DNA of 43,713 nt. Origin: Candidatus Buchananbacteria bacterium (GTDB lineage: Bacteria > Patescibacteriota > Patescibacteriia > 2-01-FULL-39-33). The DNA is taken from positions 1 through 43,713 of the forward strand of contig CAIVNC010000005.1 of assembly GCA_903907165.1 (NCBI GenBank), written 5' to 3'. Position 1 is the first letter of the stretch. Each line of letters begins with the position of its first letter. Both the position numbers and the translations under genes were made by a program. This document shows positions 8,875 through 30,220 of the stretch, piece by piece. The notes beneath the pieces were generated by a model. The model saw nothing but the letters and a program-made list of their open reading frames with translations, did no database searches and was not told the origin of the DNA.

Positions 8875-8903
8875 TTGACAAAAATATGGAAATATGCTAA
8901 TAT
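8875..8903 (+). promoter_or_regulatory. Putative sigma70-type promoter for the wzz-like operon
   Basis: TTGACA (8875-8880), a 17-nt spacer ending in TGc, then TAATAT (8898-8903). This is the same architecture as the island promoters. Confidence 0.45.
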
Positions 8904-8965
8904 AAATGATTAATTTGAAATAATTATTTAAAAAACATAAGAATTATCTAAATTTAAACAAAAAT

Positions 8966-9760
8966 ATGGAACAAAACAGTGTTTTCAATCTAAAGAATAT
9001 TAAGGTTGTCATCCTTATTACTCTAATTGCCGTTTTAATCACTCTGGGCATCAGTTTTTTGCAAACTCCCAAATATGAGTCATCTACAAAGCTGATTACC
9101 GTTTTTAATCAAGGTAATATTGACCCATACACGGCCGGAAAAACCTCTGATTACATATCTAATATCTTAAGTGAGGTTATTTATTCTAATTCCTTCATTG
9201 ATAGCGTCTTTAAAAGCCAATTTCATCTTAAAGACACTCTTGGCAATAACGCCGAAACTAGAGCAAAAAATTGGAAGGATATGGTTAAGGTTCAAACCAA
9301 GCAAAATACCGGCATCATTAATATTGATGTTTATAATACCGATCGCAACCAAGCTGATCAATTTTCTCAGGCTATCGCCTACACCATTATCAACAACGGT
9401 CAGCTTTATTATGGCACCAATGACAACGTTGTCATTAAAGTAATTGATGGTCCAGCCACCACTCAAAACTGGGCAGAACCAAAAATCGGCCGTAACGCTG
9501 GCCTTGGACTAATCGCTGGACTCATTGTCGGCTTAACTTTTATTTTTACTTTTCCAGAACAACAAATATTAAAAGCTTTCTCCATTAAGCCAAAACTTAG
9601 CCTGATTGGTGATGAAAATTTTGAATTGGCAAATAATAACATCAACCGCATATATCCAACTCAGAACAATCAAACTCAAAATAGGCCAACTGAATCGGCC
9701 CCTACGATTCCAACAGTGCCAACTGACAAAAAAAACGACGATCAATTTTACAATTGGTAA
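8966..9760 (+). CDS. Wzz-like polysaccharide chain-length determinant protein
   Basis: 264 aa. N-terminal TM followed by the Wzz signature (LQTPKYESSTKLI), a second TM near the C-terminus (LGLIAGLIVGLTFIF), and a low-complexity Q/N/P/T tail. Confidence 0.7.
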   Translation: MEQNSVFNLKNIKVVILITLIAVLITLGISFLQTPKYESSTKLITVFNQGNIDPYTAGKTSDYISNILSEVIYSNSFIDSVFKSQFHLKDTLGNNAETRAKNWKDMVKVQTKQNTGIINIDVYNTDRNQADQFSQAIAYTIINNGQLYYGTNDNVVIKVIDGPATTQNWAEPKIGRNAGLGLIAGLIVGLTFIFTFPEQQILKAFSIKPKLSLIGDENFELANNNINRIYPTQNNQTQNRPTESAPTIPTVPTDKKNDDQFYNW

Positions 9761-9782
9761 TCGCCTCTCGCTAATTTATTTT

Positions 9783-11249
9783 ATGAACAAAGCAACTGTC
9801 AGCACAATTCTAGGCTTTAACATACCGAAAACCATTATTTATGATTTTATGGTTTTCTTTTATTTGTCTGCGCTCATCATCCTCTCTATAGCTAATGGCT
9901 TTTCCCTGCTTACTTATTTAGCCTTCATAATCTTCGCTGCTTTGTTTTTTATGGTCAAGCCTCAAACCGGCTTTAGCTTGATTATTCTTTTGACCATGAT
10001 CTTTGAAAGATTTTTTACCCTTCAACCACTCATCATAGACCAACAGCAATACAAGCTTTATCCGCTAGACATTGTTATCATCTTTACCGCTATTGGTTGT
10101 TTGATTCAATTTTTTAGGAATAAAAAAAGCCAGCCGGCCATCAAAGGAAAACGATTCGATTGGCCGGAGGTTTTATTTTTTTATTTCAGTTTTTTAATGT
10201 TAACTTTTTTCATTAAATCTTTTTTTGATATTAATGCTTCTTTGGATTTATCTTTCAGTGCTCTTAAAAATTATTCTCTTTACGGAATTTTATATTTTAT
10301 CGCTTTTTATCTTAGTAACACCAAAGAGAAATTCAAAAAAAATGTCCATGTATTTTTACTTGGCGGTCTAGCCATTATTTTCTTTATCACCTACGGCCTT
10401 ATGACCGGCCAAGGACTTTGGACCGAGTTTACTCCTCTATCAACTGCTGGCGTCCGTTATTTAGCTGGTACTCATGCTTTTTATCTAGTGCTCGCTTCGA
10501 CTATCGCCGTCGCCTTTATCGCTGGCAAAAAATTTAACAACAATTATTTGCCAACTATAGTTTTGGCTATTTGGTCAATCGGCATCTTAGGTTCGCTCAT
10601 GAGACATCTTTGGCTAGCTTTAATCGTTGGCTTTATTGTTATTCTAGCCGCAATGACACTCAAAGAAAAAAAGAGATTATTGCCGTATCTTAACAAAATA
10701 AGTTTCACCGCCGCTTCAGTTTTTATTATTCTTTTTTTGGGTGCCAATCTTTTTCCTAACAACGCTCTAGCCGCAAAAATCCAGCCGTCTGTCGACTATT
10801 TAAAAGATCGCGCATCTTCCTTAACTCAACTTAACCAAGACTCTAGCGCTAACTGGCGTTTAGATTTTTGGCGTAGCGCTGCTGACTCTTGGAAAAAAAC
10901 TCCTATCGTCGGCATTGGCCTTGGCCATCAGATTTTATTTGAATCCAATGGCTGGCAAACACTAGAGGAAATCAGAAACATCCACAATTCCCTTTTGGCT
11001 ATTCTTATTCAAACTGGCGTTCTGGGCATAATCATTTTCTTAACTTTCATTGGTTCAGTAATTTCTTCAACTTGGAAAAAATTAAAAGACAATGATCTTC
11101 GTCCATATCTTGCCGGACTCATGGCCTGTTTATTTATCTTTTTATTCTGTAGCTTATTCCAACCATATCTAGAAACAAATCTAACCGGAATCTTTCTCTG
11201 GATAATTTTAGGTCTAATGCGTGCCGGAACAAAATTAGCTGAAGTTTAA
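9783..11249 (+). CDS. Wzy_C-domain membrane protein (O-antigen ligase/polymerase or O-oligosaccharyltransferase-like)
   Basis: Polytopic membrane protein with a large loop and the Wzy_C-type motif (IRNIHNSLLAILIQTGVLG). The track ORF starts at 9606 and overlaps wzz, so I chose the ATG at 9783 (MNKATV...). Confidence 0.75.
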   Translation: MNKATVSTILGFNIPKTIIYDFMVFFYLSALIILSIANGFSLLTYLAFIIFAALFFMVKPQTGFSLIILLTMIFERFFTLQPLIIDQQQYKLYPLDIVIIFTAIGCLIQFFRNKKSQPAIKGKRFDWPEVLFFYFSFLMLTFFIKSFFDINASLDLSFSALKNYSLYGILYFIAFYLSNTKEKFKKNVHVFLLGGLAIIFFITYGLMTGQGLWTEFTPLSTAGVRYLAGTHAFYLVLASTIAVAFIAGKKFNNNYLPTIVLAIWSIGILGSLMRHLWLALIVGFIVILAAMTLKEKKRLLPYLNKISFTAASVFIILFLGANLFPNNALAAKIQPSVDYLKDRASSLTQLNQDSSANWRLDFWRSAADSWKKTPIVGIGLGHQILFESNGWQTLEEIRNIHNSLLAILIQTGVLGIIIFLTFIGSVISSTWKKLKDNDLRPYLAGLMACLFIFLFCSLFQPYLETNLTGIFLWIILGLMRAGTKLAEV

Positions 11250-11256
11250 ATTTAAT

Positions 11257-12477
11257 ATGAAAATCCTTCAAGTCAATAAATTCTATTATCCCAAAGGCGG
11301 AGCGGAAACTTATTTCCTTTCCCTGATTGACGGCCTAAAAAATAACGGCCAGGAGGTTTTAATATTCTCCCAAAAAAACCCAAACAACTTGCCAAGCAAT
11401 CAAGAAAAATATTTTATCTCTGATTTGAATTTGGAAAAATTCAATTGGCCAATGGTCGGAAGTCTTGGCAGAATTTTCTGGTCGTTCAGTGCAGCTAGAA
11501 AAATTAAAAAACTTATCGCCCAAGAAAAACCAGACTTAGTTCATATTCATAATATCTATCATCAGATTTCGCCTTCTATTTTGCCAGCAATCAAAAAGAT
11601 GGGATTGCCGATAATTATGACTGTTCATGATTTTAAATTAATCAAACACGATTATACTCTACGCGCTGATGGCAAAAAAATAAAAAATAAAAATTCTAAT
11701 CTTGTCGATCTGCTTCTTCAGATTGAATTTAATTTTCACAAAAAAATAAACATCTACAAAAACAATGTCGATCTGTTTTTGGTTGCTTCTCAGTTTGTTA
11801 AAGATCAATTAGTCGCCAACGGTTTTAATTCTGAAAAAATTATCATCCAACCGCTATTCACTGATCTAGAAATTAATCAGAGTAATCAGGCAACAGAAAA
11901 ATATTTCATTGCTTTTGGCCGACTTGATGAATCCAAAGGTCTTGATACTTTAATTAGAGCTGCAGCGATTGCCAAGAGCCAACCAAAAATAAAAATTGTC
12001 GGCAATGGTCCAGCCAAAAAAGATCTTATTGATTTAACTTGGGATCTTGGCATTGCTAGTCGCGTAGAATTTACTGGCCAAAAAAATCGCCAAGACTTAC
12101 ACAAATTAGTTTCCAATTCCTTGGCCACAATTTTCCCGACTAGAGTCCATGAAACCTTTGGCTTGGGCGCATTAGAATCAATGGCTCTAGGCAAGCCAGT
12201 TATCGCTACAAAAGCTGGCGCTTTGCCAGAGCTAGTCAAAGATCAAGAAAATGGCATCTTAATTAATGTTAATAATGAAGAAGAATTAGCAAAAGCCATG
12301 GATTATTTAATGGATAATTCTGAAAAAGCCATAGTCATGGGTAAATTAGGACAAGATTTAGCTCAAAAATACAGTTCTAAGGATCACCTTAATCAGATCT
12401 TAGGAATTTATGATAAGATTAAAAATAAATTAGCCACAGACGATTCAAATATTAGTAATTTAGCTAAATTTAGCTAA
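11257..12477 (+). CDS. Glycosyltransferase family 4 (GT-B)
   Basis: 406 aa. The N-terminus (MKILQVNKFYYPKGGAE) and the C-terminal GT1/GT4 EX7E region (ETFGLGALESMALGKPVIATKAGALPELV) are typical. Confidence 0.85.
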   Translation: MKILQVNKFYYPKGGAETYFLSLIDGLKNNGQEVLIFSQKNPNNLPSNQEKYFISDLNLEKFNWPMVGSLGRIFWSFSAARKIKKLIAQEKPDLVHIHNIYHQISPSILPAIKKMGLPIIMTVHDFKLIKHDYTLRADGKKIKNKNSNLVDLLLQIEFNFHKKINIYKNNVDLFLVASQFVKDQLVANGFNSEKIIIQPLFTDLEINQSNQATEKYFIAFGRLDESKGLDTLIRAAAIAKSQPKIKIVGNGPAKKDLIDLTWDLGIASRVEFTGQKNRQDLHKLVSNSLATIFPTRVHETFGLGALESMALGKPVIATKAGALPELVKDQENGILINVNNEEELAKAMDYLMDNSEKAIVMGKLGQDLAQKYSSKDHLNQILGIYDKIKNKLATDDSNISNLAKFS

Positions 12478-12714
12478 AATAACCAGAAAACGGCCAAATA
12501 AGATCAAGAGGCCTTGACAAAAAAGCAATTTTTTGCTAAGATGTGGTATTAAGTAAAAAGCTGGATTCTAGCAATTTACTTAATTTTCTAAGTAGAACTT
12601 TGAAAATTGACTGAAAAAAACTAAACCTAGTTCAGGTTTAATTGTATATAGATAAGTGGCAAGCTTTACCGGCACTCCCTGAGTGATCGGAACTTAACGA
12701 AAGGAGAGATGATC
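12462..12714 (+). promoter_or_regulatory. Regulatory cassette copy 1 (palindrome, promoter, conserved leader)
   Basis: Perfect palindrome AGCTAAATTTAGCT (12462-12475). TTGACA (12514-12519), 17 nt ending TGc, TAAGAT (12537-12542). GAACTTTGAAAATTGA (12595-12610). ATAGATAAGT (12648-12657). Hairpin CACTC-CCT-GAGTG (12673-12685). AAAGGAG (12700-12706). Collinear with copies 2 and 3. Confidence 0.6.
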
Positions 12715-14823
12715 ATGAAAATGACGTCCCTCAACTCCAAGTCCGGCACCCTTTCGGAGTGCCAAAGCAGTAAAAAATCCACGATGGCCAACAAAGGCCA
12801 AGGAGAAAACACCATGAAGTCGTTCAAGATGTTCCTCATCCTCATCATGGCCGTCATGGCCATCGGTTTCACCGGCTCGGCCGCTTTGGCCCAAGCCACG
12901 CTCAACTTGTCCGTGCCCGACGGAAGTGGAAACGTGACTCTCACATTCACTCCCAACGGCACCGCCCTCAACGACGTCCTGGCCCAACCGCAAAGCGGAA
13001 AGACCTGGACCAATGTTGACGGCGGACTCGGCGTCCTTTGGATGATGCCCAGCATCAGTCCATACGGCGTGTATGAGACCAAGACCGGAGCCATCAGTGG
13101 CAGTGGAACTTACACCGCCAACATGACCGGAGTTGGTCAGAATTACGCCGGCGCCAATGTCTCGTTCACGCTTTCAGCCTCCCTCGCGGGAAGTTTGAAA
13201 CTGGTCCCCTACGTTGTTATCAGTGGTACGAAATACTACCTCAACACAACAAAGGTTATCGGCAACTACAATGGTGCGCCGATGACCAAGACCATGGACG
13301 GTGACTCTTGGGACTTTGCCTTGACTGGCACTGCTCCGCCCGCAACCGGAACGCCTCAGGTGACTTTTACCAAATCGTCGTCTGGCAGCGTTACAGCCTA
13401 CATTAATTTGAACGGCTCGACGCAGGTCACCTTGTTCGGTACCGCTGGAACTCCCACCTATGTCTACTTCCTTCATTACTATTCTGATGGAACGACGGCC
13501 AAGGAAAATCAGAGTTTCACCGGTTGGCCCCAGACCATGGGCGTGAACGGCTTCAAGAACGACACGATCTCCGGCATGTTCGGGATCACCGTCGGCGGAG
13601 TCGATTACCCCATGATTGCCACGGCCGCCGATTTTTCCTACAATGGAAAATTGACGCTCGTAAATGGCAAGCTGAGTTTTTCCGTCAATGGAGTCACTCC
13701 GCCCCCGCCGAACACCACCAAGGGCAAAATCACCGCGACAGTTAGCAATGGACAAGTCACGCTGACCCTGGATCCAAACGGAGCCAGTTACAGCAACTTG
13801 TTCTCTAGCAACGGCGGCTTCCCGACAGCCGGCACCAACCCGACCTCCATTCGGGTGACCAACTTCCTCTTGACCAACCCGGTCAACGGTAATTGGGCAC
13901 CGACTTACGACACCAGTGTCGTGGGTCTGAATGGAACGGTTTCGTTCCCGTCTCCGAGCGAAGCAACGGCGCGCTTCAACTTGCAGGCCACCATCAACGG
14001 AACCAATTATTGGTTCAATGTCGATTGGTGGACCATGAGCTTTAACGGCTCAACCGTTACGCCGACCGGTGGCGCTTGGGAAGTGGCAACGGGTTATATC
14101 ACTCCCCCGCCTCCTCCACTAACCACTGGAACGGCCAAGACAGCTCCCGGTGCTTGGCTCTGGAAGATCAACGCTGATGGAAATTTTGTCGCCATGATTG
14201 ACGCTTCCGACAAGGGCAGATTCAAGACCAGAAATCAGGTTGGCTACAAGGCATTCAATGCTCTAGTCTTCCTGGTTGAAGGTCCCGACGGAAACACGTT
14301 CGATCAACAAATCGTCCGCGCCTTTTCCGCTCAGCCCTTCTGGTATACCTTCCGCCCGGTCAGCGTCAAGTTAAAACTGACGGACAATGCTGTTGTTCGC
14401 ATTTTCGTGACGAAGATTGATAACAATGGCGTTGAAAAGCAAGGTTGGCGAACCGAACTTGACCTCGACACCTATATCAACGGCGTCAAAGGCAAGAAAG
14501 CCAACCTGGCCTCCATGAGCATTATGATCGCTCCGCCAGTCATTGGCATGAACGGCGTCATGCTCAAGAACGGAAAACTCTTCACTTACGCCACCATCGG
14601 CCAGCCCCTCGTCATTGACTTGGGAATTGCCGGAAATGCGGATGTCCATGCCGCTATCGTCTACACAGATAGTAGCATCCATCCGCTCGACGTTAGCAAT
14701 GGCAAAGTGATGTACGACCGAGTATCTAACTCGGACTATTACGGCTACGTTGTCATTATGGCCGAGAATAGTCTGGGTAAAGACGCTGTCGTCATCCGCC
14801 TTCTCCGCCCGCCCTGTAAATAG
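12715..14823 (+). CDS. Secreted modular protein A (N1 module, Pro-linked beta-rich domains, unknown C-terminal domain)
   Basis: GC3-rich ORF. The ATG at 12715 lies 8 nt after AAAGGAG, the position homologous to the starts of genes B and E. An alternative ATG at 12814 (RBS AGGAG) lies directly before the signal peptide MKSFKMFLILIMAVMAIGFTGSAALA|QA. The N1 module is paralogous to the N-terminus of gene E. PPPP linkers are present. A strong terminator follows. Confidence 0.85.
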   Translation: MKMTSLNSKSGTLSECQSSKKSTMANKGQGENTMKSFKMFLILIMAVMAIGFTGSAALAQATLNLSVPDGSGNVTLTFTPNGTALNDVLAQPQSGKTWTNVDGGLGVLWMMPSISPYGVYETKTGAISGSGTYTANMTGVGQNYAGANVSFTLSASLAGSLKLVPYVVISGTKYYLNTTKVIGNYNGAPMTKTMDGDSWDFALTGTAPPATGTPQVTFTKSSSGSVTAYINLNGSTQVTLFGTAGTPTYVYFLHYYSDGTTAKENQSFTGWPQTMGVNGFKNDTISGMFGITVGGVDYPMIATAADFSYNGKLTLVNGKLSFSVNGVTPPPPNTTKGKITATVSNGQVTLTLDPNGASYSNLFSSNGGFPTAGTNPTSIRVTNFLLTNPVNGNWAPTYDTSVVGLNGTVSFPSPSEATARFNLQATINGTNYWFNVDWWTMSFNGSTVTPTGGAWEVATGYITPPPPPLTTGTAKTAPGAWLWKINADGNFVAMIDASDKGRFKTRNQVGYKAFNALVFLVEGPDGNTFDQQIVRAFSAQPFWYTFRPVSVKLKLTDNAVVRIFVTKIDNNGVEKQGWRTELDLDTYINGVKGKKANLASMSIMIAPPVIGMNGVMLKNGKLFTYATIGQPLVIDLGIAGNADVHAAIVYTDSSIHPLDVSNGKVMYDRVSNSDYYGYVVIMAENSLGKDAVVIRLLRPPCK

Positions 14824-14856
14824 GGCAAGCAGTAAGTTGTACATTTTCACCCCGTC

Positions 14857-14904
14857 GGGTAACGCTACCTCAGATAAGTCTTCTGAGTAGCGTTACCCTT
14901 TTTT
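14857..14904 (+). terminator. Rho-independent terminator of gene A
   Basis: GGGTAACGCTACcTCAGA (14857-14874) pairs with TCTGAGTAGCGTTACCC (14881-14897), giving 17 bp with one bulge, followed by T7 (14898-14904). Confidence 0.85.
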
Positions 14905-15141
14905 TATTTAAATTTAGATAAAATATCTACTTTTTAGCCAAATTTAAATAAAAAATCCCACGCTTGACAATTATTTGATTTTATTATAATATAAGCCATT
15001 AAACAAATATTATTTTTTGTTTAATAACCAAGGAACTTTGACAATTAAAAGGCTATAAAAAGCTTTCAACATAGATAAGTTAAAAACACCAATCTCCCCT
15101 GAGGGAGACATAGCAGAAAATCCATTCAAAGGAGAAAGCTG
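14905..15141 (+). promoter_or_regulatory. Regulatory cassette copy 2
   Basis: Near-palindrome ATTTAAATTTAGAT (14905-14918). TTGACA (14964-14969) with TATAAT/TAATAT at 14985-14992. GGAACTTTGACAATTAA (15032-15048). ATAGATAAGT (15071-15080). Hairpin TCTCCC-CTGA-GGGAGA (15093-15108). AAAGGAG (15128-15134) 7 nt before the ATG at 15142. Confidence 0.6.
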
Positions 15142-16194
15142 ATGAGCACCAAACAACTCATCATCTTGCCATTACTATTTCTGACGTTTACCGTCGGAAT
15201 GGTTTTTGGACAAGGCAGTCAGGCGAGCACAATAACTTTTGCCCTGCCTGATATCAACGGCAAAATGGCCGTTACAGTTTCAACTCAGCCCGGAGTCCAA
15301 CTGAAAAGTCTTTTGGTTGATCCCAACCTTTTCAGTTCCAATGCGGAGATCACTCAGATCGCCGTCTTTGGTCCAACGGGCTGGGTACTGGCAACAGTCA
15401 CGGACAAAATTACTTCTTTCAGTTTGCCAATAACTTTGGCATCCGGACTAGAAGCCAGTTTTGAAACCGGAGGCACTGCTCCGTTCCGTCATTTTCGTGG
15501 GACACTCGTGGCGGCCAATGGCAGTGGCAGTAAAATCGGCTATTTCCAACTCGACAATTTTACGGGAAAGTATAACAACAATCCCAGCATCATCGTCGAT
15601 GATGGAAACGGTGGAAAAATCATCGATTTCTTCGAACAAGATTTTTTCAGTGGCGCTGATACTACTACGGCAACATTTGGCCTACCAGATGGTACCGGCA
15701 AAATGCCAATTACCATAACGGCTACCTCTGGCGTTCAATTGCGATCGTCACTGGCCAATCCCAGCTTTGTTGATGCGGACAGCTCTATTACCAATATCGC
15801 TGTTTGCGGACCAACCGGCTGGGGACTAACAGCTACCGACCGCGCGCCATTCTCTGGACTGCCGTTTTCGGGACTCAAAGCCAGCTTTGAGCCAGCCAAT
15901 TGGAATTCTCCCAATGTTCTACAAGGGCACTTTCGAGGAAACCTCTTGGCGCTCAATCTCTCGAGCAACATGAACAACACAAGTTACTTCAATCTAACAA
16001 GATTGAAAATTGTTCATGTCAACAAAAAGATTGATCCTGTTGACGACGGCTCAGGCGGCAAAGTGATTGACTTCTGGCAAAACGATTATCTTTTCCGTCT
16101 GAATTTCCTGGATCCAGCACCTCCAGCAAATCAACATTTTTTTAAAGGAGGACTGGCCAAATTCACCAGACGCGCCGTACTAGGGCCGCAGTAA
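15142..16194 (+). CDS. Secreted protein B (two tandem copies of a ~140-aa module)
   Basis: Signal peptide MSTKQLIILPLLFLTFTVGMVFG|QG. Residues ~30-168 and ~176-318 align to each other (F.LPD..GKM..T.....GVQL.S.L..P......I..IAV.GPTGW.L...D........GL.ASFE......HFRG.L..........YF.L..........VDDG.GGK.IDF...D..F). GC3-rich. Confidence 0.85.
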   Translation: MSTKQLIILPLLFLTFTVGMVFGQGSQASTITFALPDINGKMAVTVSTQPGVQLKSLLVDPNLFSSNAEITQIAVFGPTGWVLATVTDKITSFSLPITLASGLEASFETGGTAPFRHFRGTLVAANGSGSKIGYFQLDNFTGKYNNNPSIIVDDGNGGKIIDFFEQDFFSGADTTTATFGLPDGTGKMPITITATSGVQLRSSLANPSFVDADSSITNIAVCGPTGWGLTATDRAPFSGLPFSGLKASFEPANWNSPNVLQGHFRGNLLALNLSSNMNNTSYFNLTRLKIVHVNKKIDPVDDGSGGKVIDFWQNDYLFRLNFLDPAPPANQHFFKGGLAKFTRRAVLGPQ

Positions 16195-16242
16195 AAAGAT
16201 GGATCATCTAAAACCACAAAAAACTAAAAGGAGAATCGAATC

Positions 16243-17166
16243 ATGAAACAGAAGATGATGGCCACTTTCGTAGTCCTGGCGATGATGATCATCGCCAATT
16301 CGGTTTTTGCGCAGCAAATCACCAGTGTCACCTACGGCTGGAAACACTCCACCGACGGGACAAATTTCACCACGATCACTGGAGAAACCTCCGAGACCAT
16401 CAGCGCCCCGACCACCACTTCCGGCAATAATTGGTTGCGTCAAGACGTGACCGGCTGGGCCGAAACCAGTACCGGGTCAATGGTCATTGTGGCGACAACG
16501 TCTACAATCATTACCTATACGGTAAATGACGTGGTCGTTTTCACCCAACAGCCCAGCGATACCAGAGTTAACAGCGGCACTCTTGCCACCTTCTCTGTCG
16601 CGGTGACCGGTACCACTCCGATCAGCTACCAGTGGTATGACATGGCCACAACTATTACCGGCGCCACCTCCAGTACCTATAGTTTCATCGCTACTGGCGC
16701 GGACAATGGCACATCGATCAGTTGTATTGCCACCAACATCACCGGTTCAACCAGTTCCAACCCGGCTCATCTGATTGTGGACACCAAGCCAGTATTCAGT
16801 GTCGGCTTGTCTGATCTGGCCACTACAACTGGCTTAACCGTCAACCTCAGCGTGACCGCAAGTAACATCAACAATCTTACCCAGACCTACGTCTGGACTA
16901 AGAATGGAATTGTCGTCGGTGGCAATTCTCTGAATTACAGCTTCATCGCCACGGACGCGGACAACGGCGCGATCATTATCTGCACCGTGACCGATTCCGT
17001 CGGCAGTGTCAGCACTCAGATGACTCTCACGGTTCAAGGTTGGACTCTGCAAAATACCATCACCGACATTCAGGTCGACGGCGTTCCGCAGACAATGCCC
17101 ATCAATGTGACCAAGGGACATTCCCTTATGATTCGTAAGGTCTGGGTCACAGTACCTAAACCGTAA
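16243..17166 (+). CDS. Secreted protein C (N2 module + two Ig I-set-like domains)
   Basis: RBS AAAGGAG upstream. Signal peptide MKQKMMATFVVLAMMIIANSVFA|QQ. The N2 module is shared with gene D. Ig-like repeats carry FTQQPSD..V..G..ATFSV.VTG..PISYQWY and ...YVWTKNG...C.V.D..G. There is no promoter cassette upstream, so it is probably co-transcribed with B. Confidence 0.85.
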   Translation: MKQKMMATFVVLAMMIIANSVFAQQITSVTYGWKHSTDGTNFTTITGETSETISAPTTTSGNNWLRQDVTGWAETSTGSMVIVATTSTIITYTVNDVVVFTQQPSDTRVNSGTLATFSVAVTGTTPISYQWYDMATTITGATSSTYSFIATGADNGTSISCIATNITGSTSSNPAHLIVDTKPVFSVGLSDLATTTGLTVNLSVTASNINNLTQTYVWTKNGIVVGGNSLNYSFIATDADNGAIIICTVTDSVGSVSTQMTLTVQGWTLQNTITDIQVDGVPQTMPINVTKGHSLMIRKVWVTVPKP

Positions 17167-17178
17167 AAGGAGGCAGCT

Positions 17179-17979
17179 ATGAAACTGCTCATTGCCGTTC
17201 TGATGATTGTCATAGCCATCTCGGTCTCTCCGAGCTTGGCTGGCAATCTTCAACAGCAGTACGCTTGGGACATCGAAACCTCAAGCGGTTGGCAGTCAAC
17301 TGGCATCACCTCCGACACTCTGAGAGCCCCCACCGACAAAGTGGGGGCAATCAGAGTCAGGCAAACAGTCATTGCAATGATCGATGGCAATGTCGTGGCT
17401 TCAACCTCAACCATCTTGAATTATCAAGTGCTTGATGTTAATGTCACTCGGCCATTCTTCATCGTCCAACCAGAAAGCCAAGTCAGCGGTCAGAATCAAA
17501 CCGTGATGCTTGTCTCTCTGGCCACCGGAACCCTGCCAATAAGTTACCAATGGCAGAAAAACGGTCTGGACGTAGCCGGAGCCAATCAAAACACTCTGAC
17601 TATTGCAAGCGTCCAAGAAACAGACACCGGAAACTACCGATGTATGGCCAGTAACTCCGGTGGCTCGATCTTGTCGGACTGGGCCAGTCTGACCCTACTT
17701 ATCAACACCACTATCACCGCCCCGACTTTGAACTTTGTCTCGGACTCCCAAGCTATCTGGCTTGGTTCGCCGGCACTGCTTCATTGTCAGGCTAGTGGTG
17801 GCAATCTGCACTTTATTTGGCTCCGAAATGGCATCCCCATTCCCGGAGCTATCGCCCCAGACTACCTGATTCCAAGTGTCGCCCTCCAAAACGGCGCTCA
17901 GTATCAGTGCTTTTTCTGGAATGACGTCGGAACCAACATCTCCGGCATCATTTATCTGACGATTTTGACGCCAAATTAA
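17179..17979 (+). CDS. Secreted protein D (N2 module + Ig I-set-like domain + C-terminal variant Ig module)
   Basis: RBS AAGGAGG 6 nt upstream. Signal peptide MKLLIAVLMIVIAISVSPSLAG|N. Ig repeat motifs: QPESQVSGQNQTVMLVSLATGTLPISYQWQKNG...DTGNYRCMASNSGG. The C-terminal module ASGGNLHFIWLRNGIPIPG...GAQYQCFFWN is paralogous to the C-terminus of gene E. Confidence 0.85.
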   Translation: MKLLIAVLMIVIAISVSPSLAGNLQQQYAWDIETSSGWQSTGITSDTLRAPTDKVGAIRVRQTVIAMIDGNVVASTSTILNYQVLDVNVTRPFFIVQPESQVSGQNQTVMLVSLATGTLPISYQWQKNGLDVAGANQNTLTIASVQETDTGNYRCMASNSGGSILSDWASLTLLINTTITAPTLNFVSDSQAIWLGSPALLHCQASGGNLHFIWLRNGIPIPGAIAPDYLIPSVALQNGAQYQCFFWNDVGTNISGIIYLTILTPN

Positions 17980-18003
17980 ACAAAAAAACGTCAATAATCA
18001 TTC

Positions 18004-18046
18004 GCGACCAACAAACCCCTAAAAAGGTTTCTTGGTCGCTTTTTTT
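18004..18046 (+). terminator. Rho-independent terminator of the B-C-D unit
   Basis: GCGACCAAcAAACC (18004-18017) pairs with GGTTTcTTGGTCGC (18026-18039), followed by T7. The stem ends (GCGACCA...TGGTCGC) resemble the terminator of gene E. Confidence 0.8.
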
Positions 18047-18264
18047 ATCTAAATTTAGATAAAATAACCAATTACTATTGACAAAAATCAAAATGTGTGC
18101 TATTCTTATCAATTAAATCAGAAAAGCCTTTGATTTAAGGAACTTTGAAAATTGAAAGTAATATGGCCCAAAAGCCTTAAAATATAAAGAAAAGATAAGT
18201 TAACCTGGACTCCCCTAGGGAGACCTTACCTTAGCTCAGGGCAAAAGCCCAAAGGAGTAGTATC
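18047..18264 (+). promoter_or_regulatory. Regulatory cassette copy 3
   Basis: Perfect palindrome ATCTAAATTTAGAT (18047-18060). TTGACA (18078-18083), 17 nt ending TGc, TATTCT (18101-18106). GGAACTTTGAAAATTGA (18139-18155). AGATAAGTTAA (18193-18203). Hairpin CTCCC-CTA-GGGAG (18210-18222). AAAGGAG (18251-18257) 7 nt before the ATG at 18265. Confidence 0.6.
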
Positions 18265-20115
18265 ATGAAAAAGTTGATCCTCGCAGTATCAGTTTTCTGT
18301 TTGTTGTTGACATCGGTCTTCGCCGAACCCCTCATTTTCTTTACCGTCCCCCAAGACGGTGTCACATCGTTCAGTTTCAATGCCAACGGCGCCACCATGG
18401 CCAATACTCTGGTTAATCCGCCCGTCGGCAAAAACTGGGCTGACGTACATGAAATGGGAATTCTCTGGATGTTTCCGAATAACGCCCCCTGGGGAGTATT
18501 CGAAACCACTCCTATTTCCTTGACTTACGGAAACGTCTCCAACTTTACAGTCAACATGATTGGAAGCGGAGTCAATTACAATGGGACTTCCGTGTCGTTC
18601 ACAATTTCTCCTTCTCTCGCGGGAAGTCTGAAGTTGAACGCGTACGCTGTCATCGACAATGTCAAGTATTATTTTGACACCACAAAAGTTATTGGCAACT
18701 ATGACGGCGCGCCCATGACCAAGCTCATGGATCTCCAAAACTGGGACTGGGCGACGCAATCACCGATTGCACCACAAATCGTTCAGCAGCCGACGAGCCA
18801 GACCCTCTATCCGGGAGAAATAGCCACCTTTACAGTCGTGGCAACCGGATCTGGCAGCCTGTCTTATGAGTGGGCAAAAAATGGAGAGAAACTGGATGGC
18901 GCAAGTTCATCTTCGCTAAATGTTTTTTACAGCTCCGCCGTTAATGGTGATAAGTATCGTTGTATCGTCACTAATTCTGCCGGAACTATTACATCTAATG
19001 AGGTTGAGCTGACGGTGGTGGCAATACCCGGGAAACCGACGATTACTCAGCAACCAACCACCAATACTGTCGTTCTTGGAAATCAGGCAGTATTCATGGT
19101 TTCAGCAACTGGCAATGGAACTCTGAGTTATCAATGGTTCAAAAACGGTGCCGAAATAATTGGAAGAACAACTTCAACTCTGGTCATTACTAACTCTCAA
19201 CTTAGTGATGCCGGCTTGTACTATTGTTCTATCACCAATAAAACTGGCGCCGGAGTAATGTGGGAAAACTCAATTGAAGTTTCCCTGATCGTCAATGAGG
19301 CTGCAAACGCGCCTCAGATAACAACTCAACCGAGCGACATACTCGCCATCGCCGGAGAGTCCAAAGTAATATTTACCGTTGTGGCCACGGGCAATGGCGT
19401 CCTGACCTACCAATGGGCAAAGGGCGAAAACAATATCGCCGGAGCAACCAGCTCCACCTTGGCTTTTCCCAATGTCCACCTGGATGATGCCGGGCAATAC
19501 AGTTGTGCCGTCACCAACACAGTTGGAACATCGGAACTCTCCGTAATGTCCAATAAGGCAAATCTGACTGTGGTTTCTCCAATCATAATCACACAGCAGC
19601 CGGTAAACCAAACGGTGACCATCGAGCAAGACGCGGTTTTTACCATTGCCGCCACCGGTCCCGGAACACTGAGTTATCAATGGTATTGGGATAGCGTACA
19701 GATCCCTGGCGCTACAAGCTCAACGTTGACAATCAATCACGTTGAGTATAAAGCGGCGCCGAGCACAGTTTACTGCGTCGTTTCAAATCAGTATCAGGGT
19801 GTCGGTTCTAATTCGGCAACTCTGACAACGACACCGCCGGCCGAAACCACCCCAACCATCGAGTTGGTCTCGCCGTCCCGAGCCATCAATCTCGGCGACA
19901 CAATCACCCTGTCGGTGATTGCGAGCGGTGGAAATCTTCAGTACCTGTGGCTCCGTAATGGCATTCCCATTGCCGGAACTGCGAACCCTGACCTCACCAT
20001 CACCAACGCGGTGCTGAGAGACGGAGCACAATATCAATGTTTTGTCTGGAACAGTTCCCACCCGCTGGGAACCATGACCCAGATCATTTATGTAACCGTT
20101 CTGACACCCCAATAA
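18265..20115 (+). CDS. Secreted protein E (N1 module + four Ig I-set-like repeats + C-terminal variant Ig module)
   Basis: Signal peptide MKKLILAVSVFCLLLTSVFA|EP. Residues ~21-165 are paralogous to the gene A N1 module. Four ~85-aa repeats (about residues 170-252, 257-343, 349-436, 439-522) carry QP.sq....G..a.F.V.ATG.G.LsYQW.KNG..i.GATSStL........DAG.Y.C.vtN..G. The C-terminal module (530-616) is paralogous to the C-terminus of D. Confidence 0.9.
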   Translation: MKKLILAVSVFCLLLTSVFAEPLIFFTVPQDGVTSFSFNANGATMANTLVNPPVGKNWADVHEMGILWMFPNNAPWGVFETTPISLTYGNVSNFTVNMIGSGVNYNGTSVSFTISPSLAGSLKLNAYAVIDNVKYYFDTTKVIGNYDGAPMTKLMDLQNWDWATQSPIAPQIVQQPTSQTLYPGEIATFTVVATGSGSLSYEWAKNGEKLDGASSSSLNVFYSSAVNGDKYRCIVTNSAGTITSNEVELTVVAIPGKPTITQQPTTNTVVLGNQAVFMVSATGNGTLSYQWFKNGAEIIGRTTSTLVITNSQLSDAGLYYCSITNKTGAGVMWENSIEVSLIVNEAANAPQITTQPSDILAIAGESKVIFTVVATGNGVLTYQWAKGENNIAGATSSTLAFPNVHLDDAGQYSCAVTNTVGTSELSVMSNKANLTVVSPIIITQQPVNQTVTIEQDAVFTIAATGPGTLSYQWYWDSVQIPGATSSTLTINHVEYKAAPSTVYCVVSNQYQGVGSNSATLTTTPPAETTPTIELVSPSRAINLGDTITLSVIASGGNLQYLWLRNGIPIAGTANPDLTITNAVLRDGAQYQCFVWNSSHPLGTMTQIIYVTVLTPQ

Positions 20116-20134
20116 GCGCAGAACGGCCAACCCT

Positions 20135-20180
20135 GGCGACCACAGGATCTTCTCACGAAGATTCTCTGGTCGCCTTTTTT
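20135..20180 (+). terminator. Rho-independent terminator of gene E
   Basis: GGCGACCAcAGGATCTTC (20135-20152) pairs with GAAGATTCTcTGGTCGCC (20157-20174), followed by T6. Confidence 0.8.
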
Positions 20181-20193
20181 CTTTACCAAAAAA

Positions 20194-20218
20194 CCGGCAA
20201 ATTATGCCGGTCTTTTTT
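20194..20218. terminator. Bidirectional hairpin terminator between gene E and gpmI
   Basis: CCGGCA (20194-20199) pairs with TGCCGG (20205-20210), flanked by an A-run upstream and a T-run downstream. It can serve the convergent gene E and gpmI transcripts. Confidence 0.6.
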
Positions 20219-20233
20219 ATTTCAATTTTATTT

Positions 20234-21820
20234 TTATAACAAGCTTCTACCTGTCATTTCTTCTGGCTGTGGCAAACCCATGACTTTTAAAATCGTCGGC
20301 GCCACATCAGATAAAATTCCAGCCGGTTGAACCAAACTAAGATCAGAACCAATACTATCTGAAACACCGGCATTTTTACCTTCCCATTGCTTACCAATAG
20401 CGATGAACGGCACGGGATAAGTACTGTGTTCTTTGTCCACCTTTCCTGATTGTAAATTTAATAATTCTTCAGCATTACCATGATCCGCGGTAATAAAAAC
20501 TACTCCACCCTTGGCAAGCGTTGTTTCCGTTAGTTGCTTAACGCAATCATCAATCACCTCACAAGCTTTGACTGTAGCTTTTAAATTTCCCGTATGAGCA
20601 ACCATATCACCACCAGCATAATTAACTACCACAAAATCATATTTATCAGCCATTATCGTTTCCAAAATTTTCTTGGTTACTTCCTTGGCTGACATTTCTG
20701 GTTTTTCATCATAAGACTTAACTCTAGGTGACGCCACCAAAATACGATCCTCACCAGTAAACTGCTCTTCACGGCCACCATTAAAAAAGAAAGTGACGTG
20801 AGCGTATTTTTCTGTTTCGGCAGCGTGAAGCTGAGTCAGTCCGGCTTCAGAAATTACCCGAGCCAAAGGATACTGAATATTTTCTGTTGGGTATGCAGTT
20901 TCAACCGGTAAATCTTTTTCATATTCCGTCATTCCCACAAAATATAAATCTTTCAAATACTCTCTAGGAAATTTATCAAAACCAGGAAGTACCATGGCTT
21001 TGGTAATTTCTCTAGCGCGATCAGAACGGAAGTTGAAAAAAATCATGGAGTCGCCATCACTGACCTTTCCAACCGGTTGACCATTTTCAGTTATCACGGT
21101 CGGGACAACTTCCTCGTCGTAAATTTTTTGATCATAAGAAGCCTTGACTGCTTCGGCCGGATTATCAAAAGTTTTCTCGGCTTCGCCCTTTACAATGGCA
21201 TTGTATGACAAAGCAATACGTTCCCAGTGATTATCACGATCCATACCGTAAAATCTTCCAGCCAATGAAGCGATTTTTATTTCAGGAACTTTTTCTAATT
21301 TTTGTTGTAATTTTTCGACCAAATCAATGCCAGAATTAAATGGCATATCGCGGCCATCGAGGAAACCATGAATAAAAACTTTTTTTAGTTTTTGCTTTTG
21401 ACAAAATTCCACCAAAGCGTAAAGATGTTCCATCGATGAATGAACGCTGCCAGAAGAAAATAAACCCATGATATGCAAAGCTGATTTATTTTTCTTAGCG
21501 TGATCAGCGGCAGCTAGAAATTTTTCATTGGTAAAAAATGATCCGTCAGAAATGCACTTATTAATCTTTGGCAAATTCTGATAAATTAATTTTCCGGAGC
21601 CAAGATTTAAGTGACCAACTTCACTGTTGCCAATTTCACCCCAGGACAAACCAACCGCTTCACCAGAAGCTTGCAGAGTCATGGCAGGATAAGTTTTAAT
21701 CAGATTACTAATAAACGGCGTCTTAGCTAAAGACACGGCGTTACTGCGACTAGGTGGAGCAATACCCCAACCATCAGCAATAATCAGAACTACCGGTTTT
21801 GGTCTTGGATTTTCAGACAT
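20234..21820 (-). CDS. gpmI: 2,3-bisphosphoglycerate-independent phosphoglycerate mutase (copy 1)
   Basis: 528 aa. iPGM motifs: ADGWG, catalytic-Ser motif GNSEVGHLNLG, YAHVTFFFNGG, GGDMVAHTG, ITADHGN. Confidence 0.9.
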   Translation of the reverse strand: MSENPRPKPVVLIIADGWGIAPPSRSNAVSLAKTPFISNLIKTYPAMTLQASGEAVGLSWGEIGNSEVGHLNLGSGKLIYQNLPKINKCISDGSFFTNEKFLAAADHAKKNKSALHIMGLFSSGSVHSSMEHLYALVEFCQKQKLKKVFIHGFLDGRDMPFNSGIDLVEKLQQKLEKVPEIKIASLAGRFYGMDRDNHWERIALSYNAIVKGEAEKTFDNPAEAVKASYDQKIYDEEVVPTVITENGQPVGKVSDGDSMIFFNFRSDRAREITKAMVLPGFDKFPREYLKDLYFVGMTEYEKDLPVETAYPTENIQYPLARVISEAGLTQLHAAETEKYAHVTFFFNGGREEQFTGEDRILVASPRVKSYDEKPEMSAKEVTKKILETIMADKYDFVVVNYAGGDMVAHTGNLKATVKACEVIDDCVKQLTETTLAKGGVVFITADHGNAEELLNLQSGKVDKEHSTYPVPFIAIGKQWEGKNAGVSDSIGSDLSLVQPAGILSDVAPTILKVMGLPQPEEMTGRSLL

Positions 21821-30078: not shown

Positions 30079-30220
30079 ATCCTATATTTTAACAAATTTT
30101 TAACTAATGGCCAAATTATTACTAAATTAATTGACCAAAACAAAAAAATCGGCTAAAATGAGGGTGTTCACAGACGTGAGCGGTCGTTCATTCTATTTAA
30201 ACTCCAAGGAGGTAGGCATC

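Follow-up and report, generated by a model that had tools for sequence, protein, structure and literature searches.

A candidate horizontally acquired island encoding five secreted modular proteins in a Buchananbacteria-like genome

The tiny AT-rich genome of a Buchananbacteria-like host (Patescibacteria/CPR) carries an accessory island of ~7.6 kb which is GC-richer than the surrounding host DNA and encodes five proteins, A to E, in five open reading frames on the forward strand (12709-20115; coordinates refer to the window, the whole analysed stretch of 43,713 nucleotides). We lean towards the view that it is a lineage-specific accessory island, horizontally derived and locally reshuffled, whose products are secreted adhesin-like proteins. 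The island adds a well-documented case to a known type of element and does not represent a novel type of system; what is new here is its three-unit layout with paralogous cassettes of terminator, palindrome, promoter and leader. The genes are:
12709-14823, + strand: gene A, secreted protein, mature form 68 kDa
15142-16194, + strand: gene B, secreted 35-kDa orphan consisting of a ~145-aa module present twice
16243-17166, + strand: gene C, signal peptide and N2 followed by two Ig_3 domains and a tail of 41 aa
17179-17979, + strand: gene D, signal peptide, N2, one Ig_3 domain and a C-terminal Ig variant (IgC)
18265-20115, + strand: gene E, secreted 63-kDa protein with N1, four Ig_3 domains and IgC

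The start codon of A is ambiguous (12715, 12784 or 12814); its product comprises a signal peptide (MKSFKMF...ALA/QA), N1, two beta-rich modules with PPPP/PPPPP linkers between them and an orphan C-terminal part of ~230 aa. The sharing of modules, proposed in an earlier reading of the sequence only, was significant in phmmer comparisons in every case: N1 of A and E (3e-41), the two repeats of B (2e-29), IgC of D and E (9e-28) and N2 of C and D (3e-7). The Ig I-set-like repeats described in C, D and E were recognized by Pfam Ig_3/I-set above the gathering cut-off in five stretches of E, two of C and two of D, and IgC of D retains the canonical Cys...Trp...Cys triad, whereas A and B had no Pfam match.

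All five products start with a classical Sec signal peptide (basic n-region, hydrophobic core, small residues at -3/-1), with predicted cleavage at ALA/QA in A, VFG/QG in B, VFA/QQ in C, SLA/GN in D and VFA/EP in E. Neither LPXTG, lipobox, C-terminal TM segment nor SLH domain was found in A-E by inspection and Pfam, the mature proteins lack TM segments and anchor motifs, and Pfam, NCBIfam and PHROGs detected no catalytic family; on export, anchors and catalysis alike the sequence-only reading was borne out. C, D and E have an acidic pI of about 4.5, and all five proteins are S/T-rich (17-31%), Cys-poor and low in charged residues. From their sequences A-E appear to be Sec-exported, all-beta, modular and non-enzymatic-looking proteins.

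The island is predicted to be organized in three transcription units, A, BCD and E, each bracketed by intrinsic terminators. The units have in common a cassette of an AT-rich 14-bp palindrome, a perfect TTGACA -35 box followed by a 17-nt spacer, a leader of 150-170 nt and a strong AAAGGAG Shine-Dalgarno sequence:
12462-12475, no strand assigned: palindrome AGCTAAATTTAGCT, upstream of promoter A, overlapping the stop codon of the GT4 gene
12514-12542, + strand: promoter A, TTGACA-17-TAAGAT with TG upstream of -10, aligned with the other two promoters
12543-12714, + strand: leader A, ~170 nt, with AAAGGAG Shine-Dalgarno and conserved blocks GAACTTTGAAAATTGA (12595-12610), AGATAAGT (12651-12658) and CTCCCTGAG
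14857-14906, + strand: intrinsic terminator after A, GGGTAACGCTAC...GTAGCGTTACCC then T-run, read from the sequence
14906-14949, no strand assigned: palindromes upstream of promoter B, ATTTAAATTTAGAT (14906-14919) and AGCCAAATTTAAAT (14936-14949)
14964-14992, + strand: promoter BCD, TTGACA-17-TAATAT
14993-15141, + strand: leader BCD with CTCCCCTGAGGGAGAC hairpin, AAAGGAG and conserved blocks GAACTTTGACAATTAA (15033-15048) and AGATAAGT (15073-15080)
18004-18046, + strand: intrinsic terminator after D, GCGACCAA...TTGGTCGC then T-run, likewise read from the sequence
18047-18060, no strand assigned: palindrome ATCTAAATTTAGAT, upstream of promoter E
18078-18106, + strand: promoter E, TTGACA-17-TATTCT with TG upstream of -10
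18107-18264, + strand: leader E with CTCCCCTAGGGAGAC hairpin, AAAGGAG and conserved blocks GAACTTTGAAAATTGA (18140-18155) and AGATAAGT (18193-18200)
20135-20219, no strand assigned: terminator of E, GGCGACCA...TGGTCGCC and T-run, followed by a second hairpin

The profile of the island leaders reached 1e-59 in nhmmer, the stem of the terminator after D is paralogous to that after E, and within the window the cassette motifs are confined to the island. No significant RNA structure was found in the three leaders. The second hairpin after E (20193-20211) could serve the convergent iPGM gene. Local diversification would have proceeded by duplicating entire units along with their promoter, leader and terminator and by exchanging modules between A and E (N1), C and D (N2) and D and E (IgC). 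The point of insertion would lie between envelope-glycan genes (Wzz, Wzy_C and GT4) and a glycolytic cluster. The neighbouring features are:
8875-8903, + strand: promoter of the Wzz gene itself, TTGACA-17-TAATAT (sequence and promoter scan)
8946-8957: palindrome-like ATCTAAATTTAA between the Wzz -10 box and ATG, with a one-mismatch palindrome core
8966-9760, + strand: Wzz (chain-length determinant) gene, with which the + strand block opens (Pfam Wzz, 31 bits vs a cut-off of 25.5)
9606-11249, + strand: Wzy_C membrane protein (O-antigen-ligase/polymerase family; Pfam Wzy_C, 60.8 bits), true start likely ATG 9786
11257-12477, + strand: GT4 glycosyltransferase (Pfam Glycos_transf_1/Glyco_transf_4), host-like in GC, the final host gene upstream of the island
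12478-12497, + strand: imperfect direct repeat, left copy, AATAACCAGAAAACGGCCAA, coinciding exactly with the left edge of the island
20111-20130, + strand: right copy, AATAAGCGCAGAACGGCCAA, overlapping the stop codon of E
30131-30928, + strand: CDP-alcohol phosphatidyltransferase gene, a second accessory gene

The sequence-only reading described the island as GC-rich and GC3-biased on the basis of five 60-nt hand counts (36, 30, 16, 25 and 12), all exact on recount, and the excess over the rest of the window stands when computed per gene. GC is 0.475-0.538, GC2 0.45-0.50 and GC3 0.47-0.67 in A-E, vs GC of about 0.34-0.43 (~0.38) and GC3 of 0.31-0.43 in the other protein-coding genes of the window (Wzy_C: 0.365 and 0.37), CDP-alcohol phosphatidyltransferase aside. 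The shift at the island is abrupt. Island GC3 was 0.588 against 0.373 expected from its amino acids and host codon preferences, and four-fold degenerate sites lie 1.3-4.3 sd over the host mean, B being the weakest. That third positions are mostly C/G holds for the island in general but not for B (GC3 0.47), and the further claim that this sets it apart from every other gene in the window fails on the CDP-alcohol phosphatidyltransferase gene, which has a GC3 of 0.57 and the same third-position profile and is absent from the relatives L009, L010 and L018. The three long spacers of the island have a GC of 0.31-0.34, resembling host intergenic DNA.

Such values might be expected of a surface coat (S-layer-like/glycoprotein) that is native and expressed at extremely high levels, in which translational selection maintains C/G-ending codons and the products of the same-strand Wzz, Wzy_C and GT4 genes directly upstream glycosylate the S/T-rich A-E. 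The consensus -35 boxes, strong Shine-Dalgarno sequences and clean terminators of all three units fit this proposal, as do the acidity of C, D and E, the low charge and Cys content of all five proteins and the weakly similar promoter layout in relatives. In cultured Paceibacteria secreted Ig-like/PKD proteins are reported to rank among the most expressed genes and have been proposed as host-adhesion factors (bioRxiv 10.1101/2023.08.25.554742). Moreover, synonymous sites are not host-like though the spacers are, and since neutral evolution after a transfer should shift both towards host composition, some room is left for codon selection. However, the GC3 excess is absent from the enolase, pgk and iPGM genes, and C3 and G3 are each ~1.7-fold higher than in same-strand host genes, so that GC3 is raised in general and not through an NNC-specific preference; the bias is also common to a phospholipid-synthesis gene for which high expression is improbable. 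Wall-binding domains, SLH included, were not found, and five dissimilar proteins, B among them with its low GC3, contrast with a single lattice former. We therefore consider a native coat unlikely. Foreign origin is favoured over codon selection because the GC3 excess goes beyond amino-acid content, is absent from glycolytic genes and recurs in the second accessory gene.

Database searches also point outwards. For seven of the nine Ig domains the best match lies in other bacteria (46-52% identity) and not within the island (33-47%), and all top matches with an organism name are non-CPR; by sequence, most island Ig domains are nearer to those of other phyla than to one another, the best external match being only about 50% identical per domain. 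The best match with genomic context lies on a contig of 62.5% GC with C3 > G3. A and B had no homologue among 5.8 billion clusters, nor A outside N1 among 1.84 billion representatives, and both are orphans in all databases searched; the earlier reading had recognized no family in the non-Ig modules. N1 has only four remote relatives in 1.84 billion proteins, all extracellular and multidomain, which also bear Ig_3, InlB-B-repeat-like, dockerin or CARDB domains; in one of them (P0126) N1 immediately precedes Ig_3 repeats, the same arrangement as in E. The predicted model of N1 is all-beta (pLDDT 75-89), whereas models of B and most of A were unusable (Foldseek matches of TM about 0.1).

Homologues of A-E were found in none of 80 related loci by tblastn (45 loci listed; the available relatives are distant, with iPGM at most 76% identical). 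The order pgk-eno-iPGM2-iPGM1 is conserved across the related loci examined, and the 13 closest relatives listed have other genes than A-E after iPGM1; the island therefore lies at a synteny breakpoint. Of the two origins first suggested, acquired coding DNA driven by host-type AT-rich promoters is favoured by this absence together with GC3, its recurrence in the second accessory gene, the Ig matches and the weakly similar promoter layout in relatives. The coding DNA as a whole, or failing that its Ig_3 arrays and N1, would have been transferred horizontally from a GC-richer bacterium; because Buchananbacteria genomes span 33-56% GC, the donor may itself have belonged to the CPR. The boundary direct repeat matches at 16/20 positions, as do 0.5% of random window pairs (p about 0.005), and is a possible insertion footprint.

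An assembly chimera or binning contaminant, in which a CPR contig has been fused to a GC-richer fragment from a different organism, would account for the abrupt GC shift, and the AT-rich spacers are indeed break points in other assemblies. Yet the GT4-A junction recurs with an identical 306-nt gap in two other samples (contigs from ERZ1426562 and ERZ1426681), and B-C-D-E-iPGM contigs 99.6-100% identical to the window come from three other assemblies. Only the A to B join (about 14968-15088) lacks an independent copy, and each half beside it is anchored separately to host genes; the spacers are host-like and the promoter cassettes resemble those of relatives. A chimera is thus not borne out, and we regard it as hardly credible.

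The closest solved relatives of the Ig parts are an Ig-like protein of a phage (9ncf) and the Hoc-like Sf14 gp20 (9c2d), in which three Ig domains accompany an N-terminal binding domain; animal adhesion molecules come next. The best PHROG matches are phage proteins too, including tail proteins. With the atypical composition and possible flanking repeat, this would suit a prophage or mobile-element remnant, with Hoc-like decoration or tail Ig proteins stranded in the chromosome, as would a cassette with a reverse-transcriptase-like ORF, seen in translated sequence only, at the same intergenic site of the relative L015. The phage matches are, however, restricted to the Ig repeats and leave capsid- and tail-binding domains uncovered, phage or viral collections yielded no relatives of A or B, and searches found no intact phage genome and no virion proteome carrying this gene set. 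Neither integrase, transposase nor tRNA occurs at the borders and no phage genes lie nearby. Virion proteins assembled in the cytoplasm need no Sec signal peptide, while all five proteins have one. A prophage remnant is accordingly very improbable.

As to function, A-E are most likely adhesion proteins by analogy, the Ig domains of C-E belonging to a family that serves adhesion in bacteria, phages and animals; the Ig-like proteins reported from cultured Paceibacteria are in line with this. The earlier suggestion of an S-layer/adhesin system is retained as adhesin-like, given secreted modular Ig proteins, and S-layer identity is not supported: there is no SLH or anchoring domain, five different proteins occur instead of one lattice protein, and relatives lack homologues. 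Secretion for a non-adhesive role, such as polysaccharide or nutrient capture or toxin/effector delivery with Ig domains as spacers, would place the activity in the orphan modules of A (M2, M3 and the C-terminal 230 aa) and B, for which any activity is possible because they fit no recognizable family. Enzymes or lectin-like domains often stand beside external Ig_3 arrays (pectate-lyase-like, DUF1566, CARDB, dockerin), and the N1 segment G.KYYFNT..V.G.LNG marginally matches one cell-wall-binding/CROP repeat of C. difficile toxin A (E about 0.01). That match is a single repeat of ~19 bits with no match to Pfam CW_binding_1, no catalytic family was detected, and C, D and E are nearly all Ig plus a short N-terminal module, so that we hold such a role to be doubtful.

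As adhesins, the exported A-E may be held non-covalently on the envelope or on each other via their N-terminal non-Ig modules; because no anchoring mechanism was found, surface association is a conjecture and simple release is possible. The Ig strings would point outward, arranged as in the Hoc-like decoration proteins of phages, and bind a partner cell or surface weakly and multivalently. The island contains no regulator gene; through the shared palindrome, one regulator would switch the three units jointly.

The GC-richer segment of about 7.6 kb between the GT4 gene and iPGM1 carries five open reading frames, named A to E, organized in three transcription units (A, BCD and E). Each of them, as proposed in the sequence-only reading, starts with a Sec signal peptide, recognizable by its basic n-region, the hydrophobic core that follows and the small residues found at -3/-1.

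12709-14823, + strand, gene A, ORF with signal peptide
15142-16194, + strand, gene B, ORF with signal peptide
16243-17166, + strand, gene C, ORF with signal peptide
17179-17979, + strand, gene D, ORF with signal peptide
18265-20115, + strand, gene E, ORF with signal peptide

The start of A is ambiguous (12709-12816), with starts possible at ATG 12715, 12784 or ATG 12814. The first is located 3' of an AAAGGAG that aligns with the Shine-Dalgarno sequences of B and E and would put an additional stretch of about 33 aa, hydrophilic in character, ahead of the signal peptide; the second is the choice of gene callers and the third (MKSFKMF) has its own AAGGAG upstream. The C3-rich codon pattern of the island is also present in the N-terminal extension of A.

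The five 60-nt G+C counts made previously by hand were all exact on recount, and sliding-window GC forms a plateau of 0.48-0.55 over the island vs a background of about 0.38. Per gene, the island shows GC of 0.475-0.538 (about 0.34-0.43 in the other protein genes of the window), GC2 of 0.45-0.50 (lower in the others) and GC3 of 0.47-0.67 (0.31-0.43 in the others). The amino acid composition (T 12%, few K, E and R) raises GC2 but does not account for the GC3 excess: the island amino acids combined with host codon preferences predict GC3 of 0.373, the observed value being 0.588, and at four-fold sites the island genes lie between 1.3 (B) and 4.3 (C) standard deviations over the host mean. The assertion that third positions are mostly C or G, unlike in all other genes of the window, needs two corrections: it does not apply to B (GC3 0.47), and the same profile is found in one gene outside the island.

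30131-30928, + strand, CDP-alcohol phosphatidyltransferase gene, GC3 0.57, GC4 0.66, island-like third-position profile

This gene seems to be a further accessory gene with high GC3. It is inserted in antisense orientation, flanked by the small-subunit gene of the NiFe hydrogenase on one side and hypC/radical-SAM on the other, and is missing at that site in three related loci (L009, L010 and L018), and a 39%-identical copy is present in L012. The lineage is thought to be limited in lipid synthesis, hence a phosphatidyltransferase gene is notable.

Two explanations of the island's composition had been put forward, i.e. DNA acquired from elsewhere and placed under host-type AT-rich promoters, or a codon set selected for very high expression. 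Translational selection acting specifically on C3 was rejected, as the pure T3-to-C3 shift that would have pointed to it is seen vs minus-strand genes only. In the + strand host genes C3 (0.20-0.25) already exceeds G3 (0.11-0.12), and in this strand-matched comparison C3 and G3 of the island are each raised about 1.7-fold, which amounts to an overall rise of GC3. No such rise is seen in the enolase, pgk and iPGM genes. A direct repeat was also found at the island borders.

12478-12497 and 20111-20130, border direct repeat, unit AGAACGGCCAA, imperfect (16/20 match), each copy just past or overlapping a stop codon

This single repeat, whose score is reached by 0.5% of random window pairs (p ~0.005), may be the trace of an insertion; neither integrase nor transposase nor tRNA was found at the island. 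Taken together, the GC3 elevation, the glycolytic genes devoid of it, the phosphatidyltransferase gene and the border repeat favour horizontal origin over codon selection. The latter keeps some weight, with the host-like GC of the spacers (0.31-0.34) as a caveat to acquisition: the spacers may have been recruited or exchanged, the alternative being that the genes maintain their synonymous GC. The GC content of Buchananbacteria spans 33-56%, so the donor of horizontally acquired genes could itself have been a CPR bacterium.

Accessory status of the island points in the same direction as its GC3 pattern. The gene order pgk-(SIMPL)-eno-iPGM2-iPGM1 is kept in the related loci examined, yet tblastn detected A-E homologues in none of 80 such loci (45 printed), the nearest relative being 76% identical in iPGM. 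In the 13 closest relatives, those with ORFs listed, the place after iPGM1 is occupied by different genes, either GT2s and MreB or an ABC transporter. One related locus, L015, has a different insertion at the same intergenic site, which indicates that the site is variable. Directly after iPGM1 (11878-14329) L015 carries three ORFs, read from translations only: one GC-rich of 194 aa, one 23S-rRNA-IVP/Avd-like and one reverse-transcriptase-like. If the insertion is a diversity-generating retroelement, as it may be, the site would be a hot spot of variation. The A-E segment shares with acquired genomic islands the atypical GC and GC3, its absence at the corresponding site of the relatives studied, the variable site and possibly a short flanking direct repeat. 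It differs from typical ones in the lack of integrase, transposase or tRNA and in its regulatory spacers, whose host-like composition and paralogy imply that the segment has long been resident and was duplicated locally.

The flanking iPGM gene has its best relatives (up to 76% identity) in MAGs of Candidatus Buchananbacteria and other Patescibacteria, and the rest of the window is consistent with the Patescibacteria host assignment. A chimeric assembly, named earlier as a possible refutation, was checked with independent contigs of other samples, and both borders and most internal junctions were recovered. GT4 and A, separated by an identical 306-nt gap, occur on independently assembled contigs, the join of E to iPGM on an independent contig assembly, and B-C-D-E as well as B-C-D-E-iPGM on contigs of other samples (99.6-100% identical to the window). 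The A-to-B junction is the sole one seen in the window assembly alone; chimerism is very unlikely because each half (the A side and the B-E side) is tied to a host gene.

The island proteins had been described as assemblies of a small set of shared modules, and the module pairs proved significant by phmmer: the N-terminal module N1 of A vs that of E (E 3e-41), repeat 1 vs repeat 2 of B (2e-29), the N-terminal module N2 of C vs that of D (3e-7), and the variant C-terminal Ig domain, IgC, of D vs that of E (9e-28). The Ig repeats of the island are each related to the others. Their I-set-like character in C, D and E is borne out by Pfam Ig_3 (PF13927)/I-set (PF07679) matches of 36.6, 66.4 and 165.5 bits, respectively (gathering cut-off 30); A and B have no such match and are therefore placed outside this family. 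A strict regular expression for the strand-C Trp and the D-x-G-x-Y-x-C of strand F matches two domains of D and three of E, the remaining Ig domains having the core motif with substitutions (YEW...GDKYRC, YQWY...STVYC, DNGTSISC).

A word-indexed search of 5.8 billion clusters with A and B returned self matches only. Exhaustive HMMER search of 1.84 billion representatives with A yielded, besides E, four proteins, each matching N1 only and joining it to InlB-B-repeat-like, dockerin, CARDB or Ig_3 domains; in one of them, P0126, N1 immediately precedes Ig_3 repeats in the same order as in E. Its occurrence in four multidomain proteins of this kind indicates that N1 is a rare extracellular module travelling with Ig_3, now defined by six sequences. 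At the gene for P0126 (about position 8000 of contig L083) GC changes from 0.30-0.40 in the genes to the left to 0.48-0.56 in those to the right, marking either an island border or a chimeric contig. An apparent strain variant of E, a 622-aa gene on contig L107, was discarded as E broken by a run of scaffold Ns.

N1 is predicted to be an all-beta domain (pLDDT 75-89), the only usable part of the predicted structure of A; the model of B has pLDDT of 35. Foldseek (PDB, BFVD) gave generic multi-Ig/FN3 chains with TM of about 0.1, and no fold was assigned. The conserved KYYFNT segment of N1 has a marginal match (E about 0.01, about 19 bits) to a single CROP repeat of TcdA (toxin A) in PDB, with one repeat-like segment per N1. 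The assignment of N1 as a CROP/choline-binding (CW_binding_1) repeat was rejected, since this match is marginal and PF01473, which describes tandem 20-aa G-W-x-x-x-x-G-x-W-Y-Y-F repeats, was silent in all six N1 members.

The Ig domains have numerous relatives. Searches with E gave more than 1200 significant matches of 33-43% identity, confined to the Ig part (about 72% of the query), and all those bearing an organism name are non-CPR (Terriglobales, Methylomirabilota, Opitutaceae, Fibrobacteres, Planctomycetes, Burkholderiales). For seven of the nine island Ig domains the external best match (46-52% identity) beats any island domain (33-47%), the only mutual best match within the island being that of the IgC domains of D and E (54%). 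Being nearer to external domains than to each other, the arrays are not a recent local expansion. Judging by these identities, they appear to have been imported from among the widespread bacterial Ig_3 proteins, N1, N2 and IgC having been swapped locally later. The best external homologue with genomic context is encoded on a contig of 62.5% GC, where C3 exceeds G3.

Tandem Ig_3/I-set proteins are widespread in Acidobacteriota, Verrucomicrobiota, Planctomycetota, Fibrobacterota and Proteobacteria. Proteins C, D and E share with them the domain itself (core Y-x-W...D-x-G-x-Y-x-C, 46-52% identity per domain), secretion and tandem arrays. In contrast to them, the island proteins are short (245-596 aa when mature), belong to a CPR bacterium whose genome is small and AT-rich, carry fused N-terminal modules that are rare (N1) or unique (N2) and are accompanied by two orphan proteins; enzyme, lectin and sorting domains, common in the external Ig_3 matches, are absent.

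Among solved structures the closest sequences to the Ig part of E are phage proteins, 9ncf and Sf14 gp20 (2e-32 to 6e-37), followed by animal adhesion molecules; its Ig repeats are homologous to Hoc/Sf14 gp20 (PDB 9c2d_S, 2e-32), and Hoc-like families of PHROGs match E at 2e-39 and 8e-33. In Sf14 gp20 (PDB 9C2D/9C3A), the Hoc-like decoration protein of a Shigella phage, an N-terminal domain binds the capsid and three Ig domains project outward. The layout, a terminal binding domain followed by an outward string of Ig domains thought to be weakly adhesive, is the same in Hoc-like proteins (T4 Hoc, Sf14 gp20), Ig-bearing tail proteins and the island proteins, but the likeness is confined to the Ig repeats (residues 125-361 of the 9c2d chain), N1 and N2 being unrelated to capsid-binding domains, and the island has Sec signal peptides and no phage context. 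Phage origin was rejected, as A and B have no relatives in IMG/VR, INPHARED or PHROGs; no phage genes were found in the window.

Cultured Paceibacteria (Ca. Yanofskybacteria, 32-520) produce highly expressed secreted Ig-like/PKD/PGBD proteins, proposed to be host-adhesion factors (bioRxiv 10.1101/2023.08.25.554742). CPR origin, signal peptides and Ig-like folds are common to these proteins, for which host-cell attachment was proposed, and those of the island, a likeness taken from the description of those proteins; a GC-atypical island or a shared promoter cassette is not described in that study (bioRxiv 10.1101/2023.08.25.554742).

The proteins of the island are far less conserved than its expression cassettes. 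A, B and E are each preceded by a long spacer; the three spacers can be aligned and contain in fixed order the T-run that ends the upstream intrinsic terminator; an AT-rich palindrome of 14 bp, A[GT]CTAAATTTAG[CA]T (also written ATCTAAATTTAGAT; two copies before B); a promoter in which a perfect TTGACA and the -10 box are 17 nt apart; and a leader of 150-170 nt with the blocks GGAACTTTGAMAATTGA and AGATAAGT and an AAAGGAG Shine-Dalgarno sequence. These promoters are the three best + strand predictions of the region. The leaders of B and E contain a CTCCCCTGAGGGAGAC hairpin, and stems are shared by the terminators that follow D and E. The palindrome together with the leader motif, allowing 0-1 mismatch, occurs at these three places only within 43.7 kb. 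Paralogy of spacers and terminators indicates that the island grew by duplication of whole transcription units.

The leaders are read as carrying protein-binding or sequence-level signals. A structured RNA or riboswitch was rejected: no Rfam 15 family came near its gathering score, folding was no better than that of shuffles (z -0.7 to -1.7), and the few compensatory pairs in alifold, drawn from three sequences, are anecdotal. In public collections the leader motif GAACTTTGAMAATT...AGATAAGT had 21 metagenome matches, all devoid of palindrome, promoter and hairpin context and therefore taken as chance, and no viral ones. The palindrome was likewise dismissed as a general Buchananbacteria operator, none of its five exact cores in 1.32 Mb of relatives being in promoter context. 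An nhmmer profile search revealed only weak similarity to promoter regions in three related loci (L015, L011 and L013). By eye, a terminator, a TAAATTTAG-like element and TTGACA-17-TATAAT were recognized in several relatives before a conserved ORF-free region, and this similar layout supports the proposed host-type promoters.

It had been noted that the island proteins lack LPXTG, lipobox, SLH domain and C-terminal TM anchor, and the scans agree. No TM-like segment or hydrophobic C-terminus (last 40 residues) is present in the mature proteins; the only LPXTG-like matches are loose internal ones (B240 LPFSG, E567 IPIAG) with no TM segment or tail following; and SLH and wall-binding families are absent from Pfam and NCBIfam scans at E <= 1. 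The S-layer label is unsupported in view of the missing anchoring domain, the dissimilarity of the five proteins and the lack of conservation in relatives. C, D and E have an acidic pI, all five proteins are S/T-rich, and the promoters are strong, which gives only indirect hints of a dominant, lattice-forming cell protein. The proteins are exported by Sec and have an all-beta modular build. We infer their surface location and adhesion from the known roles of the family, the Hoc-like layout and the Paceibacteria precedent, and A-E is likely a secreted adhesin-like cluster.

The envelope theme is consistent with the genes directly upstream on the same strand (order Wzz-Wzy_C-GT4-A-BCD-E).

8966-9760, + strand, Wzz chain-length-determinant gene, promoter 8875-8903

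A copy of the palindrome core with one mismatch, ATCTAAATTTAA, lies at 8946-8957 between the Wzz -10 box and ATG. From adjacency comes the idea that the island proteins might be glycosylated by, or docked onto, the glycopolymer of Wzz/Wzy_C/GT4. A more far-reaching proposal, which we consider improbable, is that the island encodes a self-contained, co-regulated host-attachment coat of this CPR lineage, with N1, N2, the B repeat and three orphan modules of A as undescribed recognition or anchoring domains. The orphan domains would dock the Ig stalks onto this envelope glycopolymer, as Hoc is docked on the capsid, the KYYFNT hairpin of N1 might be a binding site for glycan or cell wall, and the palindrome and leader would form a dedicated switch turning on the whole coat at host-cell contact.

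To our knowledge, little is known beyond type IV pili of how ultrasmall CPR bacteria recognize and hold their hosts. Secreted Ig-like proteins are candidate CPR adhesins, and the locus offers a compact set of them, verified across assemblies, as well as an example of such proteins probably gained by horizontal transfer and rebuilt through module swapping. Its three paralogous promoter/leader cassettes could provide a handle for finding a regulator. Bacteria commonly have secreted Ig_3 proteins, orphan surface proteins and accessory islands of atypical GC. The locus is of known kinds, bacterial Ig_3 proteins and a compositionally atypical accessory island, with some originality in its orphan modules, in the family of N1 and in the triplicated cassette with its palindrome. 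The island is at present a good example rather than a discovery.

The minus strand of the window further encodes NiFe hydrogenase and its maturation proteins, pgk, enolase, two iPGMs in tandem and a block for cell-wall synthesis, in which an mraY-like gene and those next to it were identified from N-terminal sequences only. Further features were noted:

27134-27484, - strand, 23S-rRNA-intervening-sequence (four-helix-bundle, Avd-like) gene
35798-36223, + strand, 141-aa ORF (GC3 0.53), a putative gene only
20234-21820 and 21847-23403, - strand, tandem iPGM paralogues

The Avd-like gene, located between pgk and the hydrogenase genes, is found at the same site in three related loci (L003, L007 and L008); no reverse-transcriptase gene was seen near it. 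The 141-aa ORF, for which Pfam gave no match, is situated in a gap of 652 nt that separates minus-strand genes. The ORF-free region of L011 (15300-17050; equivalents in L008, L010, L013 and L022) is driven by a strong TTGACA-17-TATAAT behind the TAAATTTAG-like AT element. It has no Rfam or ARAGORN match and contains TGTGGATAA (DnaA-box-like) motifs and a UUCG-loop hairpin whose stem varies between loci yet stays paired. The iPGM paralogues share about 43% identity, and the pair is kept across the Patescibacteria relatives examined.
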